This document shows positions 7,682 through 59,969 of a stretch of DNA of 64,000 nucleotides, in pieces. The DNA comes from Acidobacteriota bacterium (lineage in GTDB: Bacteria; Acidobacteriota; UBA890; WLXD01): positions 224,001 to 288,000 of the forward strand of contig CAXWPH010000002.1 of assembly GCA_963666055.2 (NCBI GenBank), read 5' to 3'. Numbering within the stretch: the first letter of the stretch is position 1; every line of letters starts with the position of its first letter. The position numbers and the translations under genes were made by a program. The notes below the pieces were generated by a model that saw only the letters and a list, made by a program, of their open reading frames with translations, was not told the DNA's origin and made no database searches.

Positions 7682-7682
<1 letters not shown>
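7284..7682 (+). CDS. Small 4-TM membrane protein (conserved hypothetical)
   Basis: HSGVRYLVL...LLDLQTLLG...H pattern with four hydrophobic helices; its stop overlaps the next ATG. Confidence 0.75.
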
Positions 7683-9177
<1,495 letters not shown>

Positions 9178-9181
<4 letters not shown>

Positions 9182-9320
9182 CACGGCCTGCTAGCAGGGT
9201 GCTGAAGAGCTCTGGTGGGTCACGTGCGTGGGTCTTGCTGGCGAGATCAAGAAAGAGCGGCGGCGCCGTGCCTTCACGGCGTGGGCTCGAGCCTGCCACC
9301 CTACACCCGACCCCACGGCT
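9178..9320. repeat. Remnant plus diverged relative of the CTAG-element family
   Basis: CTAG-CACGGCCTG-CTAG at the M32 stop, then CAGGGTGCTGAAGAGCTCTGGTGGGTC (TIR-like) and hairpin CGCCGTG-CCTT-CACGGCG. Right boundary approximate. Confidence 0.6.
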
Positions 9321-9381: not shown

Positions 9382-11526
9382 ATGCATCGCCGCGCGCTCA
9401 CGCTGTTGACCCTCATCCTCAGCCTGGGGGTGATCCTTGGTCCGACATCGAGTATGGCTCAGGAGGCGGCATCCGCAGAAGCGGAGCCTGGCCGTCTGGC
9501 TGCCGAAGACACCCTACGAATCAGCAATGTCGGCAACCCGCGCTTCTCGCCGGACGGTGAGTGGGTGCTATACACCGTGGCGGCGCGCGATATGGATGAC
9601 GACGAGCTGTCGCGCTATACACACCTGTATCGCGTACGTGTGGATGGCACCGGCGGGCGGCAACTGACCCGGGGAGACAGCTCCGCCAGCTCGCCGCAGT
9701 GGTTTCCGTCGGGCGACAAGTTCGCCTTCCTTCGCGAGGTCGACGACGCCAGTCAGGTATATGCCATGCACACCGATGGTGGTGAGGCCTGGCAGGTGAC
9801 AGATTCCGAGGAAGGGGCGGGCACCTACGGGATCTCTCCGGACGGCGGCAAGATCTGGTTTGTGGCGCGTAACCCCGAGACCGCCGAGCAGAAGCGGCGC
9901 GCCGAGCAGCACGACGATGCCGTCGTCGTCGATGCCGAGTTCCGCTTCAGCCACCTCTGGGTGCACGATATGGAGGCGGGTGAGTCGACGCGGCTGACGG
10001 AGGGCGACTTTACGGTTAGCGACCCGCGTTGGTCGCCTGATTCCAGCCGTATCGCCTTCGTTACGCGGCCGACGACCAAGGTGAACGACGGCTGGAACAG
10101 CGACATCCGCGTCGCCGATGTTGCCTCGGGCGAGTCTCGTGTGCTGTTCGAGAACCCCGGCCCCGACAGCTCGCCGCGCTGGTCTCCGGACGGCGACAAG
10201 ATCGCCTTCACGGCCAACACCCACACCGGAACAACGGTCTGGCACAGCAAGCTCTACCTGTTGCCGGCAGATGGCGGCGGCGAACCCGAGATCTTGCTCG
10301 AGGACTTCGACTTGAACGCCGGCCCGCCGATTTGGGCTCCCAACGGCGTCGATATCTACTGGGCCACCGGTGAGCGTACCAACGTGGCGCTTTACTCGGT
10401 GCAGGTAGCTACCGACGAAGTTCTGCGGCACGGTGTGCCCTCGGGCGCCAACTTCCAGTTCCAGCTGTCGCCCGATGGCGGCCGCTGGGTATGGGTGCAC
10501 TCCAACCCGACGCATCCATCGGAGCTCTACACCGCGCCGTCGAACGATCTGTCGCAGCTCACGCGTCTCACCACCCACAATGCCTGGCTGGCCGAGTCGT
10601 TCGAGCTCGCCGCCGCCCGCCCCATCACCTGGACCAACTCCGACGGTCAGGAGATCGAGGGCGTGGTGCACTTTCCGATCGGGTATCGGGAGGGGACGGC
10701 GTACCCGCTTATCGTCCACCCGCACGGTGGTCCCAGCGGCGCGGTGACGACGTCGTTCAACTCCACCAACCAGATGCTCGCCGCCAACGGCTTCCTGGTG
10801 TTCCAGCCCAACTTCCGCGGCAGCTCCAACTACGGCCAGGAGTTCCTCAACGCCAACCGTGACAACTGGGGCACACGCGACTACGACGACATCATGACCG
10901 GGGTCGACGACCTCATCGCGCGCGGCTGGGCCGATGCGGATCGGATGGTCGCCTACGGATGGAGCTACGGTGGCTACATGACCTTCTGGATGTCCACCCA
11001 GACCGATCGATTCAAGCTGATCTCACCGGGTGCCGGGCTCACCAACTTGTACTCGATGTACAGCACGACCGACATTCCGGGATACATGGGGTGGTTCTTC
11101 GGCACGCCGTGGGACGACGAGGACGCGTACCGACGCCACTCGCCCATCCGCCACGTGAAAAACGTCACTGCCAAGATGTTGATCATGCACGGCGCCGACG
11201 ATGCCCGCGTGCCCCCGGGGCAGGCGGTGGAGTTCTATCAGGCGCTGCGCGATTTGGGTAAGGACGTGACGTATGTGTCGTACCCACGTCAGGGCCACGG
11301 TATCGCCGAGCCGCGACTGCAGGTGGACCGCCTGCGCCGCTACGTGTGTGCGTTCACCGACGCGGTGAGTATCGAGGCCACAACCGAGGAGTGTGACGAT
11401 GGCGTCCCGGCGATAGTGGCCGACGACGAGGAGGAGAGCGCAGAAACGGCGGCGGCGTCAGGTCGCGCTCCAAACGCCAGCGAGCTCGACACCGGCGTCT
11501 ATCGGGTGATTCAGTTCCACCGCTAG
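9382..11526 (+). CDS. S9 family peptidase (acylaminoacyl/dipeptidyl peptidase) with beta-propeller
   Basis: Signal peptide, repeated PRWSPDG units, HGGP, GWSYGG nucleophile, HGADDARV, QGH. Confidence 0.95.
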   Translation: MHRRALTLLTLILSLGVILGPTSSMAQEAASAEAEPGRLAAEDTLRISNVGNPRFSPDGEWVLYTVAARDMDDDELSRYTHLYRVRVDGTGGRQLTRGDSSASSPQWFPSGDKFAFLREVDDASQVYAMHTDGGEAWQVTDSEEGAGTYGISPDGGKIWFVARNPETAEQKRRAEQHDDAVVVDAEFRFSHLWVHDMEAGESTRLTEGDFTVSDPRWSPDSSRIAFVTRPTTKVNDGWNSDIRVADVASGESRVLFENPGPDSSPRWSPDGDKIAFTANTHTGTTVWHSKLYLLPADGGGEPEILLEDFDLNAGPPIWAPNGVDIYWATGERTNVALYSVQVATDEVLRHGVPSGANFQFQLSPDGGRWVWVHSNPTHPSELYTAPSNDLSQLTRLTTHNAWLAESFELAAARPITWTNSDGQEIEGVVHFPIGYREGTAYPLIVHPHGGPSGAVTTSFNSTNQMLAANGFLVFQPNFRGSSNYGQEFLNANRDNWGTRDYDDIMTGVDDLIARGWADADRMVAYGWSYGGYMTFWMSTQTDRFKLISPGAGLTNLYSMYSTTDIPGYMGWFFGTPWDDEDAYRRHSPIRHVKNVTAKMLIMHGADDARVPPGQAVEFYQALRDLGKDVTYVSYPRQGHGIAEPRLQVDRLRRYVCAFTDAVSIEATTEECDDGVPAIVADDEEESAETAAASGRAPNASELDTGVYRVIQFHR

Positions 11527-11801
11527 CAGGCCGTGGTGAAAGTGTGGTGGGTCTGGCGACAGGGACTTGCGAAGTGGAGGCAAGGAGAGAGGAGAAGGCG
11601 ATGGATACCCCATCGTTGACGAGGAACGACGCAGCATACGCGCGCAACCCCCTGTCGCCCGAAGGGTTACGGCGATTTGGGGCCATTTGCAGCGTTGGCC
11701 TTCCTGGACGATGGCTAGGGCATCGCCTGTGTCAGGCCGCCTTGCATCTGGCCCCAACTCGCCGTAACCAGTCCCACCACACTTTCACCACGGCCTGCTA
11801 G
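11523..11801 (+). mobile_element. 279-bp MITE-like element, copy 1
   Basis: Ends CTAGCAGGCCGTGGTGAAAGTGTGGTGGGTCTGG ... CCAGTCCCACCACACTTTCACCACGGCCTGCTAG; near-identical to 42434-42711 and 51835-52113; the left CTAG contains the S9 stop. Confidence 0.9.
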
Positions 11802-12142
11802 GGCGCCATTCGCCGGACAGCTCGCCACCAGGGTCGGCTCTAGGGCCGACTCCGCAGTAGCTCACCCGGGCGACCTTCGTAAACCAGTCGCAGAAGCCAG
11901 CGGCCTTGCCGCTGAACTCACCGGAGATCCATACGTCTTTTGACGACGAGGGGTCGGAGATCACGCCAACGTAGTCTCCCGTGCGCTCGAATCCCCCTGC
12001 GCCTTTGTCGATCGTGCACGTACTGGAAGGCGGCGATGACGTCTCCACTTGGGGTAACCGCGATTCCCGGCACCCAAACGTAGTGGCCCTTGACTCCGAA
12101 CAGGTCTTCGAAACCTACCGTAGCGCCGTCGGCGGTCGGCAA
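11802..12142 (-). pseudogene. Broken C-terminal fragment of a probable secreted hypothetical protein
   Basis: Two protein-like pieces in different frames (YVWVPGIAVTPSGDVIAAFQY and ERTGDYVGVISDPSSSKDVWISGEF); no convincing start; the 3' end runs into the MITE. Confidence 0.45.
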
Positions 12143-12247: not shown

Positions 12248-12277
12248 TTGACAACGTCCTTCGATTTGTCGTACAAT
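12248..12277 (+). promoter_or_regulatory. Sigma70-type promoter
   Basis: TTGACA(12248-12253)-18 nt-TACAAT(12272-12277) in an AT-rich patch; palindrome ACAATCT-TT-AGATTGT overlaps the -10. Confidence 0.6.
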
Positions 12278-12300
12278 CTTTAGATTGTTGCTTGAAGCAG

Positions 12301-12331
12301 CCCGTCCGGGCAGTCGCCGGGACGGGTTTTT
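12301..12331 (+). terminator. Intrinsic terminator
   Basis: CCCGTCC-G-GGC-AGTC-GCC-G-GGACGGG followed by TTTTT. Confidence 0.75.
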
Positions 12332-27985: not shown

Positions 27986-28085
27986 GCTCGGCCCACCTCC
28001 GGCGCATATCCATCGCTGCGCAATCGCAACGACGGCCACTCATCCAGAGCGTACAAGATCGCACGCCGAAGTGGTTCGACGACTA

Positions 28086-28112
28086 CCCCACACTTCCACC
28101 ACGGCCTGCTAG
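28086..28112. repeat. Solo TIR remnant
   Basis: CCCCACACTTCCACCACGGCCTGCTAG. Confidence 0.8.
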
Positions 28113-28184
28113 GGTCGCGAGGCGCTACGATCTGCGGTCGGGCTCGGCGAATTCGAAACGTTGATCGACAGGAGATGAACTTCC

Positions 28185-42059: not shown

Positions 42060-42437
42060 ATGAAGGTGAAACGACAGCGTGATCGTTCTAGTGGAGCCCG
42101 GTCTCCGGTTTCGCCTCGGCTGATCGAGGGTGGCATCGATGCTGCCGTGCCCCTCGACCGGACGATTCATCAGCCCGTGCGCCTGGCGATCATCAGCTCG
42201 TTGGCGGTGAACGACGCGCTGAGCTTCAACGAGCTCAAGCAGCTGCTCGAGTTGACAGATGGCAACCTGAGCGTGCACGCGCGCAAGCTCGAGGACGCCG
42301 GGTACGTTGCTTGCGACAAGAAGTTCGTCGGGCGTATGCCACGTACGCAGTACCGACTGACCGGCTCGGGGCGCCACGCGCTCGAGCGCTATCTGGAGCA
42401 CATGGAGGCGCTTATCGCTGCCGTGCGGCAGTCGTAG
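42060..42437 (+). CDS. Winged-helix transcriptional regulator (HTH_34 type)
   Basis: IHQPVRLAI, TDGNLSVHARKLE, PRTQYRLT. Confidence 0.92.
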   Translation: MKVKRQRDRSSGARSPVSPRLIEGGIDAAVPLDRTIHQPVRLAIISSLAVNDALSFNELKQLLELTDGNLSVHARKLEDAGYVACDKKFVGRMPRTQYRLTGSGRHALERYLEHMEALIAAVRQS

Positions 42438-42711
42438 CAGGCCGTGGTGAAAGTGTGGTGGGTCTGGCGACAGGGTCTTGCGAGGTGGAGGCAAGGAGAG
42501 AGAGGAGGCGATGGTTACCCCATCGTTGAGGAGGAACGACGCAGCATGCGCGCGCAACCCCCTGTCGCCCAAAGGGTTACGGCGATTTGGGGCCATCTGC
42601 AGCGTTGGCCTTCCTCGACGATGGCCGGGGCATCGCCTGTGTCAGGCCGCCTTGCATCTGGCCCCAACTCGCCGTAACCAGACCCACCACACTTTCACCA
42701 CGGCCTGCTAG
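42434..42711 (+). mobile_element. MITE-like element, copy 2 (278 bp)
   Basis: Same TIRs and body as copy 1 with roughly a dozen differences; begins at the regulator's TAG (GTAG context). Confidence 0.9.
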
Positions 42712-42744
42712 CAGGCCCACCTCACTTCCACCCCGGCCTGCCAG
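42708..42744. repeat. Collapsed mini-element adjoining copy 2
   Basis: CTAGCAGGCC-CACCTCACTTCCACCCCGGCCTGCCAG: both TIR ends fused and diverged. Confidence 0.65.
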
Positions 42745-42787
42745 ACGCAAGGAGTCGCCGACGCTGCGTGGCATAGTTGAAGGCATC

Positions 42788-51834: not shown

Positions 51835-52113
51835 CTAGCAGGCCGTGGTGAAAGTGTGGTGGGTCTGGTTACGGCGAGTTGGGGCCAGATGCAAGGCAGC
51901 CTGACACAGGCGATGCCCTAGCCATCGTCGAGGAAGGCCAACGCTGCAAATGGCCCCAAATCGCCGTAACCCCCCGGGCGACAGGGGGTTGCGCGCGTAT
52001 GCTGCGTCGTTCCTCGTCAACGATGGGGTAACCATCGCCTCCTCCTCTCTCCTTGCCTCCACTTCGCAAGACCCTGTCGCCAGACCCACCCCACTTTCAC
52101 CACGGCCTGCTAG
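51835..52113 (-). mobile_element. MITE-like element, copy 3 (279 bp, inverted)
   Basis: Reverse complement of copies 1 and 2; CTAG at both ends; intergenic. Confidence 0.9.
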
Positions 52114-54704: not shown

Positions 54705-54741
54705 CAACCAGACCCACCACACCTTCACCACGGCCTGCTAG
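54701..54741. repeat. Internally deleted element forming the whole spacer between two convergent stops
   Basis: CTAGC-AACCAGACCCACCACACCTTCACCACGGCCTG-CTAG. Confidence 0.85.
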
Positions 54742-55889
54742 CCACTCGCCGCTGCGGCCGCCTCCACGGCGCGCATCACGCGCAGGAAGTTACCGCCGGC
54801 GATCCCGCGTAGCTCGTCGTTGCCATAACCGCGGCGCACCAGCTCGACGAATAGGTCAGGGAACTTGGACACGTCCTCGAGACCCTCGGGGACCTCCTCG
54901 ATGCCATCGAAGTCGGATCCTATGCCGACGTGCTCGGCGCCCATGATCGCGCATAGATGGTCAATGTGGTCAGCTACCTCGCCGAGCGTTGCGTGCGTCG
55001 CCGCATGGTCGACGTCCCAGGCGGCTAGTTGGCGCTCGCGCTGCCCGGCATCGTCCGGGTGTAACTCCATCAGACGGGCCTTCCAACCTGTCCGGCTGGC
55101 GCGGTGCTCCAGCACCCGAGCCGAGACGAAGTAGGGGACGAACGTGGCCATTACGATGCCGCCACCGTCGCGCAGCATCCGCAGCACATCATCGGGGACG
55201 TTGCGCGGGTAATCGTTGATCGCGGCGGCGCCTGAGTGTGTGCACGCGACCGGCGCCCTCGACGCATCGATTGTCTGGCGCATGGTATCGGCGGAGGCGT
55301 GCGACAGATCGATCAGCATCCCGAGATCGTTCATACACGCGACCACCTCACGCCCGAAATCCGTGAGGCCGCCGTGCACCGGATCCAGGCGACAGCAGTC
55401 AGCCCAGTCAGTGTGCACGTTGTGAAGCAGCGTCATGTACCGGGCGCCGGCTCGGTAGGCAAGCCGCAGGGCAGCCAGGGAGTTCTCGATACCGTGGCCG
55501 CCCTCGACGGCGATCAGCGACGCGATCTTGCCGTCGGCATGGATACGCTCGATGTCATCGGCGCAGAAAGCCGGCTGCAGGGTGTCCGGATAGGCCGATG
55601 CGAGTCGCGCGGCCACCTCGATCTGTTCGAACATCACCCGCGCGGCCCCCGCGCCCGCCAGCTCGAACGGCACGTAGGCAGCCCAGAACTGCGCTCCGAC
55701 GCGGCCGGCTCGCAGACGCTTGAGATCGGTGTGCATTGGGGGCTCGAGCGCGCTCGTGTCCTCGAAGTCGAAGCGATCCAGGTCGTTGCCGACGCGTTGG
55801 CGCAGCTGATACGGGACGTCGTTGTGTCCCTCGACGAACGGCGATTCGGCCAGTAGTCGGAGGACGCGTTGTCTGATCTCTTCGCTCAT
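54738..55889 (-). CDS. Membrane dipeptidase family (M19), cytoplasmic
   Basis: GHND, HTDL, VEGGH, DLSH, HVGIGSDFDG. Confidence 0.93.
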   Translation of the reverse strand: MSEEIRQRVLRLLAESPFVEGHNDVPYQLRQRVGNDLDRFDFEDTSALEPPMHTDLKRLRAGRVGAQFWAAYVPFELAGAGAARVMFEQIEVAARLASAYPDTLQPAFCADDIERIHADGKIASLIAVEGGHGIENSLAALRLAYRAGARYMTLLHNVHTDWADCCRLDPVHGGLTDFGREVVACMNDLGMLIDLSHASADTMRQTIDASRAPVACTHSGAAAINDYPRNVPDDVLRMLRDGGGIVMATFVPYFVSARVLEHRASRTGWKARLMELHPDDAGQRERQLAAWDVDHAATHATLGEVADHIDHLCAIMGAEHVGIGSDFDGIEEVPEGLEDVSKFPDLFVELVRRGYGNDELRGIAGGNFLRVMRAVEAAAAASG

Positions 55890-59750: not shown

Positions 59751-59762
59751 GTCGGGCGGATC

Positions 59763-59839
59763 CTAGCAGGCCATGGTGGAAGTCTGTCGGGCCGTAGCCC
59801 TGTAGCCAGGTCCGCCACACTTCCACCACCGACTGCTTG
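59763..59839. repeat. Short diverged element with both TIRs
   Basis: CTAGCAGGCCATGGTGGAAGTCTGTCGGG ... CCGCCACACTTCCACCACCGACTGCTTG. Confidence 0.7.
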
Positions 59840-59969
59840 CGACCCTCGCCGTCGAGCGAGCCGGATCTAGGCTTCGGGCGAGCAACTGGTCGCCGACCCC
59901 GGGAGCGGTATCCTTGCTCGCGCAGCCACTCCCCCCAGTTTGCCTTCGTTCCGCTTGCAGCGCATCGCC

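Follow-up and report, generated by a model that had tools for sequence, protein, structure and literature searches.

In an Acidobacteriota genome (here G000), a peptidase gene runs directly into a 279-bp repeat whose interior holds two opposed stem-loops, each enclosing the same spaced motif. Is such an interior what remains of an insertion sequence (IS), or is it a structured module recognised by a protein? The first-pass annotation of the window, by which we mean the whole 64,000-nucleotide stretch of DNA analysed, leaned towards the second view and proposed a REPIN-like module or an mRNA stability signal. The element, its parts and its other full copies in the window are located in Table 1.

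Table 1. Positions of the repeat element, its parts and its full copies in the window
Feature	Position	Strand	Remarks
Whole MITE-like element, family F1	11523..11801	+	279 bp, counted CTAG to CTAG; non-coding repeat
Left terminal inverted repeat	11523..11556	+	First 21 bases equal the end of an IS1182-like element in relative G011
Arm A outer stem with degenerate ERIC-type core	11557..11657	+	Covariation; arm A matches in relatives
Arm A parts	AAG loop 11582-11584; inner hairpin 11597-11617; partner strand 11627-11635	+	
Third mini-arm, CCC-GAA-GGG	11658..11666	+	Conserved 3-bp hairpin in linker between arms
Arm B, intact short-form ERIC-type core	11667..11767	-	Matched by R1, R2 and R3
Arm B parts	AAG strand 11738-11749; partner 11686-11697; inner hairpin 11707-11727	-	
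Right terminal inverted repeat	11768..11801	+	34-bp inverted ends of the element
Second full copy in window	42434..42711	+	95% identical
Third full copy in window	51835..52113	-	97% identical, opposite orientation

Insertion-sequence ends around a separate interior

The stop codon of the upstream peptidase ORF (9382-11526) is the TAG at 11524-11526, inside the left terminal repeat, and the ORFs of at least 80 aa that cross the element are chance-like frames. G000 contains 89 full copies at 80% identity or more, accompanied by one-arm and nested derivatives. Among relatives, 21 of 40 gave a match, with full-length copies of 72-76% identity spread over two families, and a near-identical end type was found in L128, a record titled Acidobacteriota. 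The element was not seen behind the orthologous peptidase gene in any of three same-genus genomes, where the flanks are too diverged for a clean empty site, and none of six foreign element copies tested gave a clean empty site.

Two neighbouring features were recorded. An 87-aa ORF on the reverse strand (11785-12048) enters the right terminal repeat, stops inside it and resembles a gene fragment. At 12248-12330 (+), a strong sigma-70-like box (11/12 matches) stands about 30 nt ahead of a GC hairpin and a T run, all in an AT-richer spacer; this could be a small RNA of about 50 nt or the promoter of a foreign fragment.

The closest match to the ends is a 1.5-kb IS1182-like IS, present in four copies in relative G011, whose ends match the element at 21 of 21 bases. 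Its DUF772 transposase scores highest against the IS1182 model (158 bits, under the cut-off of 270), and beyond the 21 terminal bases the IS shares no sequence with the element. One of 26 genomes yielded this transposase, and G000 did not. Related ends, likewise bounded by CTAG, occur on sister ISs in G005 and G007, and the G007 type matches F2, a sister family of the element. The abundant IS5 of G000 was rejected as a parent, having different ends and a TTAA target. PF13751 had no match in G000, and a single IS630-like gene was found there. G007 itself carries about 142 DUF772 (IS5-type) transposase matches in a 5.1-Mb genome, a large IS burst with CTAG-bounded ends.

Terminal 4-mers read NTAG..CTAG in six copies and CTAG..CTAA/TTAA in three, consistent with TA duplication within CTAG, and the junctions of nested elements have CTAG on both sides. 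The CTAG used by nested insertions lies in the loop of the arm B inner hairpin, and 12 right-end-to-arm-B junctions genome-wide suggest that the element inserts into itself. At C11:160026-160413 of G000 we observed a tandem array of 83-bp units, each ending at this CTAG. Lone or decayed ends of the F1 element and of F2 lie in the window at 9185-9221 (directly after ORF 7682-9181), 28077-28113, 42709-42745, 54706-54742 and 59762-59840. CTAG is strongly under-represented in G000 as a whole, with 5391 occurrences observed and 18834 expected.

Short, non-coding and dispersed in many copies, with inverted repeats, a TA duplication and IS-matched ends, the element has the properties of a MITE. Like MITEs of the IS5/IS1182 superfamily, it has terminal inverted repeats in common with an autonomous DUF772 IS, uses a CTAG target, is non-coding and occurs in many copies, and we infer from the ends that an IS1182-like transposase may mobilise it in trans. 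It differs from these MITEs in having an interior that is not IS-derived and is common to elements with other ends. Because the IS with the same ends has no such interior, the interior is cargo and not the remnant of an IS deletion. Moreover, the twin interior occurs in G000 with three end types (89, 6 and 9 copies), and contig C14 of G000 has long single cores standing alone, without such IS-type ends; the interior is therefore a separate cargo. The core is also absent from the autonomous IS, and therefore transposition does not need it. The earlier claim that the interior is more organised than a simple IS deletion requires is supported both by this restriction of sharing to the terminal bases and by the covariation described below.

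Fold, covariation and fine structure of the core

The two arms pair as had been proposed (A, 11555-11571 with 11643-11659; B, 11665-11685 with 11749-11769). The spaced motif within them is exact at 11580-11635 (+) and 11689-11745 (-), with 64 matches in the genome and none in three dinucleotide-block shuffles. The whole element folds with z = -12.7, and 0 of 200 shuffles folded as well. When 25 order-level copies were aligned, the structure of end stem, arm A, arm B and a 3-bp mini-arm was paired in 95% of cells. In this alignment 49 of 96 pairs had changed on both sides, a kind of count that related sequences inflate; 0 of 500 shuffles scored as high, and the value lay above all slid controls. 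Cross-phylum cores (n = 47) showed double changes in 22 of 29 pairs. Covariation, one of the checks named in the first-pass annotation, is thus real.

The mini-arm, which the first-pass annotation had overlooked, has the form CCC-NNN-GGG in 24 of 25 aligned copies, with 98.7% of cells paired. It mostly abuts both arms without unpaired bases, so that together with the end stem and the two arms it makes a four-way junction. The loop reads GNA in 16 of 24 order-level copies and has another sequence in 8. In sister family F3, the outer pair is T-A (a compensated change) and the loop is GNA in 11 of 11 copies; the T-A compensation fits a three-base loop register.

Read along the strand that carries AAG, the core has a short helix and a 3x1 loop in which AAG faces one variable base. 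A GCG/CGC helix, a YAA bulge and a helix of variable sequence follow, and then a G(N)A/GA loop leads to an inner hairpin. Across the 25 order-level copies, conservation of the unpaired AAG and CAA bases is 92-100%, except for the middle bulge base of arm A. In 65 model-found cores the first bulge base is C in 59, and P3 pairs are of all four types. Core lengths fall into two discrete classes, 61-65 nt (51 of 121) and 79-83 nt (70 of 121), and the inner hairpin is closed by G.T in 30 of 47 cross-phylum cores.

A tandem G.A next to a three-base bulge could make the core a kink-turn RNA bound by an L7Ae-like protein, and by eye the commonest core can be drawn as a textbook k-turn. However, the second G.A is changed in 32 of 89 copies, that of the window included. 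Among the 65 model-found cores, 0 of 18 variants at the diagnostic position keep their pairing in the k-turn register as opposed to 14 of 18 in the non-k-turn register. These data largely refute the kink-turn and leave it next to no probability.

Relation to ERIC and distribution across bacteria

We compared cores by three models whose E-values are rough. R1 was made from 47/48 non-redundant long cores and contains no enterobacterial sequence; R2 was made from 30/31 short cores with an approximate, hand-set structure; R3 is an ERIC-only model from 22 enterobacterial copies. Because 3 of the 22 training copies of R3 were first found by R1, searches in the two directions are not fully independent.

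Arm B of the window matches both pan-bacterial models (R1, E 2.8e-13; R2, E 1.8e-14). Arm A of this lineage has lost part of the core structure: arm A of the window copies is not significant against R1 or R2 (best E 0.33-0.35), and arm A of four relatives is matched by R2 at E 1e-4 to 0.02. The spacers of the two motifs had been called unrelated, which does not hold, as identity between the A and B cores is 62% here and 81-86% in two relatives. It had also been suggested that the same fold is presented whichever strand is transcribed. One strand-specific folded core does lie on each strand. What the two strands present is nonetheless different, since arm A is degenerate and since, of the 89 copies in G000, 56 have a gene ending at the A end of the element and 22 at the B end.

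Knowledge of ERIC repeats dates back to 1990. When R1 was run against the E. coli K-12 chromosome it returned four sites (best E 1e-9), and a fifth in the rpsB-tsf spacer with filters off. All five lie 1-6 mismatches from two 20-base motifs of the published ERIC consensus (PMC2759123 Table 1a). In the opposite direction, R3 matches arm B of the window at E 1.4e-4 and arm A of relative G007 at E 1.3e-4. It also matches cores of many phyla, with a best E of 3e-11, and its two matches clearly off any core have E of at least 0.64. With a sequence-only ERIC profile, 7 of 8 weak matches fell on cores and the window was missed. These matches indicate that the enclosed motif is a relative of the ERIC core, intact in arm B and worn in arm A, a relation that the first-pass annotation had not recognised. 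The shared unpaired bases, spacing and inner hairpin favour common descent of the two cores over convergence.

The element resembles ERIC (also called IRU or RU-1) in core words and one-strand fold, as judged by the two-way model matches, in TA-type ends with target duplication (PMC2229807 Table 1) and in an intergenic position, often beside stop codons and with an orientation bias. It differs in architecture, since ERIC has one long-form core in about 127 bp and this element has two short cores head to head in 279 bp. It also has a four-way junction and IS1182-like ends, lacks ERIC termini and resides in an acidobacterial genome; ERIC is described for Enterobacteriaceae and Vibrionaceae (PMC10969869). 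Our literature search, which covered subscription journals thinly, found no report that ties ERIC to other phyla, outside Gammaproteobacteria, or that prints the core motif. In their accessible passages, reviews give ERIC no mobilising enzyme and no structural motif beyond the ends (PMC2229807, PMC10969869).

The first-pass annotation had suggested a motif search in other phyla. The exact arm B pattern occurs at 119 or more loci in GTDB genomes, and the first 80 of these listed fall into about 13 phylum-level groups (our own grouping by record titles, with many metagenome bins). The matches are borne out by features outside the pattern, namely the outer stem, the inner hairpin and the two length classes. 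The core is present in about a dozen bacterial phyla, either between several end types or alone. With R1 at E of 1e-5 or less, and with the centre genome left out of each count, cores were found in 30 of 100 genomes from the phylum to which a Pseudomonas belongs. The phylum of a Faecalibacterium gave 11 of 100 and the phylum of a Bacteroidales bin 12 of 60; R2 matched 9 of 60 genomes in the phylum of the host. Ten genomes chosen for having a match contain from 5 to at least 150 copies each. The same linker lies beside 19 of 41 short cores and 2 of 67 long ones, and in 5 of 9 non-relative loci chosen for this linker R2 found a second, opposed core (E<0.07), always head to head. Rfam at gathering score gave chance matches only on the element and 20 core loci, apart from one tRNA. 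A plasmid blastn search with the element had no match, and viral contigs gave two pattern matches only.

Several individual loci were recorded. Within 50 kb of G000 (C14:532926-583125) there are six long-form cores without IS-type ends, one of them between two tRNA-like genes and two in tandem. A single core, always antisense to the operon, occupies the purH-purD spacer in L055, L064, L071, L090, L261, L262 and L077 (six distinct Pseudomonas-like loci and one Bacteroidales bin). Diverged cores, all antisense, lie at different junctions of one cysK-containing operon in five genomes (L264, L272, L273, L287 and L288), possibly by repeated capture or domestication. A weak R1 match in L170 (1844-1894, -; E 0.005) lies close to the left end of a G007 IS and seems to cover the transposase start; the AAG side of the core can be read as ATG CAA GGC. 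This match is probably due to chance.

Two described repeat families bear some likeness to the element. Gmet_R1005 of Geobacter metallireducens, listed as 'predicted short RNA elements' with 24 intergenic copies, has a central palindrome like the inner hairpin of Desulfobacterota long-form cores, a comparison made with a figure legend only (PMC2700814). The core motif was not found in 12 of the 19 supplementary files of that paper, and its accessible passages draw no link to ERIC or to other phyla (PMC2700814). The Geobacter family may be an earlier, partial sighting of the core family. CIR repeats of Caulobacter and Brucella, likened here by their description only, share a predicted fold of two arms joined by a linker and differ in their length of about 110 bp and their GANTC methylation sites (PMC2229807).

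Put together, ERIC may be no more than the enterobacterial branch of a family of structured single-strand cores that is ancient and pan-bacterial. Such cores would have been captured repeatedly by unrelated IS-type ends, in long single and short twin forms (the twin with a four-way junction), and would be read by one conserved protein, cellular or of a mobile element, that drives their spread. We hold this broad proposal tentatively and rate it at somewhat less than an even chance.

Mutation pattern, strand bias and the role of the core

Across the 89 full copies, loops and linkers show about twice as many changes per site as stems and core do, in line with the first-pass annotation. An even spread of substitutions over stems and loops had been named there as evidence against a conserved fold, and here the outcome was divided by allele class. 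Overall, and among shared variants, stems are avoided: alleles in at least four copies number 0.07 per paired and 0.42 per free site, a sixfold avoidance (p 3e-6). Private alleles are even, with singletons at 0.40 per paired and 0.47 per free site (p 0.55; a weak test on 38 and 34 alleles). For the core bases alone, the depletion among alleles in at least four copies is not significant (11 vs 31, p 0.26), and in a tree-based count the stem deficit was the same on tip branches as on inner ones (Fisher p 0.33). The allele-frequency and the tree-based tests are both blurred by conversion among copies, and the singleton result is compatible with moderate selection per copy. Since private changes are even and shared variants avoid stems, the fold appears to be filtered mainly among the copies that spread.

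Beside the core, G.T outnumbers A.C on the AAG strand by 49:12, suggesting that one strand folds on its own. This excess is not seen in P3 (21:17) or in the arms within G000, where arm A shows the opposite (5:12). Tandem G.A pairs, G.U wobbles and UNCG loops are typical of RNA, and the reverse complement of the C-GNA-G loop reads as an RNA-type UNCG loop. GNA loops themselves have a special stability as DNA and are less stable as RNA (PMC13037366). By crude ORF calls the AAG strand is sense to mRNA in 74 cases and antisense in 90. DNA rather than RNA is suggested by the GNA loop with its T-A compensation and by an AAG strand that is not preferentially mRNA.

Replication-strand bias was not counted as support; it was not reproduced in relatives (52:26 in G000; 41:37 in four relatives, by crude skew). 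Subsets of G000 gave 11:1 for convergent pairs, 7:12 for no-gene contexts and 7:6 for lagging-strand genes. Two Bacillota genomes gave 29:3 and 11:1, counts confounded with gene strand, and by eye the E. coli core copies split evenly.

The reading we favour, at only a little short of an even chance, is that this 279-bp repeat with IS1182/IS5-type ends carries two head-to-head relatives of the ERIC core, and that the core is a folded single-strand signal, likely DNA, which makes it more probable that a copy is copied or retained. The allele pattern, together with the GNA cap as a DNA-stable loop, argues for a single strand, for DNA as its likely nature and for a filter on spreading copies. In this proposal, an IS1182-like transposase acting in trans would have inserted the element at the TA within CTAG sites, which are frequently stop codons. 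Where a replication fork, transcription bubble or cruciform exposes the strand, the AAG strand would fold into a stem with the 3x1 AAG loop, the GCG/CGC helix, the CAA bulge and an inner hairpin with a cap. The twin form would build the four-way junction from its end stem, its two arms and the GNA-capped mini-arm, and its layout would place one core at each end and on each strand. A putative, widely conserved protein may read the unpaired bases and aid synapsis, excision or survival of the palindrome. If a protein does read the fold, only copies with an intact fold would found new subfamilies. Against this reading stand the lack of a partner protein in our searches, the rarity of the matching transposase (1 of 26 genomes, not G000), the autonomous IS that does without the core, and an orientation bias and operon-spacer cores that fit an RNA role.

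Such an RNA role is the main rival and follows closely, though we give it a somewhat lower probability. Copies at stop codons would be co-transcribed and would alter mRNA processing or decay according to orientation, host selection would keep tolerable or useful folds, and the twin would offer a signal on either strand. Several observations are in its favour, among them the tandem G.A, the wobbles and the opposite-strand UNCG loop, all RNA-typical by general knowledge, the 56 against 22 gene ends at the A and B ends in G000, and the single cores that persist in purH-purD spacers and at junctions of the cysK-containing operon. In the same direction, ERIC is reported to be co-transcribed and, in Yersinia, to destabilise upstream mRNA in an orientation-dependent, RNase E-linked manner (PMC2229807, PMC10969869). 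Within 45 nt of a stop codon, cores across phyla have the AAG strand antisense rather than sense by 46:8. However, at 46-150 nt the ratio turns to 12:36, and part of the bias is geometric, since elements with a single core have additional sequence on one side. The AAG strand, the one with the conserved fold, is more often not mRNA near stop codons and in tandem gene pairs (39 antisense, 23 sense). An RNA role, including the mRNA stability signal of the first-pass annotation, is also weakened by private mutations that do not avoid stems. Contigs of RNA runs (small shares, assembled contigs only) contain fragments of the element that carry no information on transcript ends, strand or level.

These evenly spread private mutations equally suit a neutral core. 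Here an old palindrome would be shuffled between IS ends, its stems kept matched through template switching and gene conversion and its loops free to mutate. Compensatory double changes do occur in the terminal repeats too (48 cells at 7 of 30 pairs within G000), the A and B inner hairpins are near mirror copies in the two relatives with the more similar cores (81-86%), which points to conversion, and elements pile up at regenerated CTAG sites, where ends can be swapped. Yet repair keeps pairs and not unpaired bases, and the AAG loop and YAA bulge are nearly fixed while the flanking helices turn over. Nor are the strand-specific G.T excess of 49:12 and the two discrete core lengths expected from repair alone. 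We consider a neutral core rather improbable.

Searches for a partner of the core covered neighbouring genes and Y1 proteins, and found no binding protein. There was no transposase family among 132/148 neighbour ORFs of cores and no recurrent mobile gene among the ORFs of 194 core loci; both sets held housekeeping genes only. The Y1 results bear on a further alternative, in which a single-strand transposase of the HUH class (Y1, RAYT-type) would use the core as a REP-like substrate and the IS-type ends would be secondary wrapping. The likeness to REP/REPIN/BIME systems with RAYT is real as an analogy: both have a strand-specific imperfect hairpin with a conserved bulge, two opposed units with a short linker and similar short words. 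On single-stranded DNA, TnpA-REP requires the AA-GC bulge that is conserved in E. coli REPs (PMC8266576), and by eye the reverse strand of the REP-derived RU-3 has the short words AAGGCG and CGCCGC of the core (PMC2759123). In G245, a single broken Y1 gene also has three cores no more than 1.4 kb away. However, the element differs from these systems in its larger core, its DDE-type ends and the lack of a RAYT and of a GTAG tag at its arms. No Y1/RAYT match was found in G000, in 24 of 25 relatives or in 3 of 5 core-rich genomes, no core (E<0.01) lies near 10 of 11 Y1 loci checked, and the sites that R1 gave in E. coli with filters on were four, all of ERIC type. A REP-like substrate is thus very improbable, and of the earlier REPIN-like label the analogy stands and the enzyme does not.

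The novelty of this locus is a MITE with a cargo of twin short-form ERIC cores and a four-way junction; otherwise the element is an ordinary repeat. Its cargo interior challenges the view of MITE interiors as leftover IS sequence. An ERIC core that is pan-bacterial and has defined unpaired bases would come as a surprise to specialists. The loop, bulge and junction defined by covariation give exact positions to mutate, which makes the spread of ERIC, and the question of DNA versus RNA, testable. If the core is common to repeats in 11-30% of sampled genomes of three large phyla, then ERIC is one branch of a far larger family.
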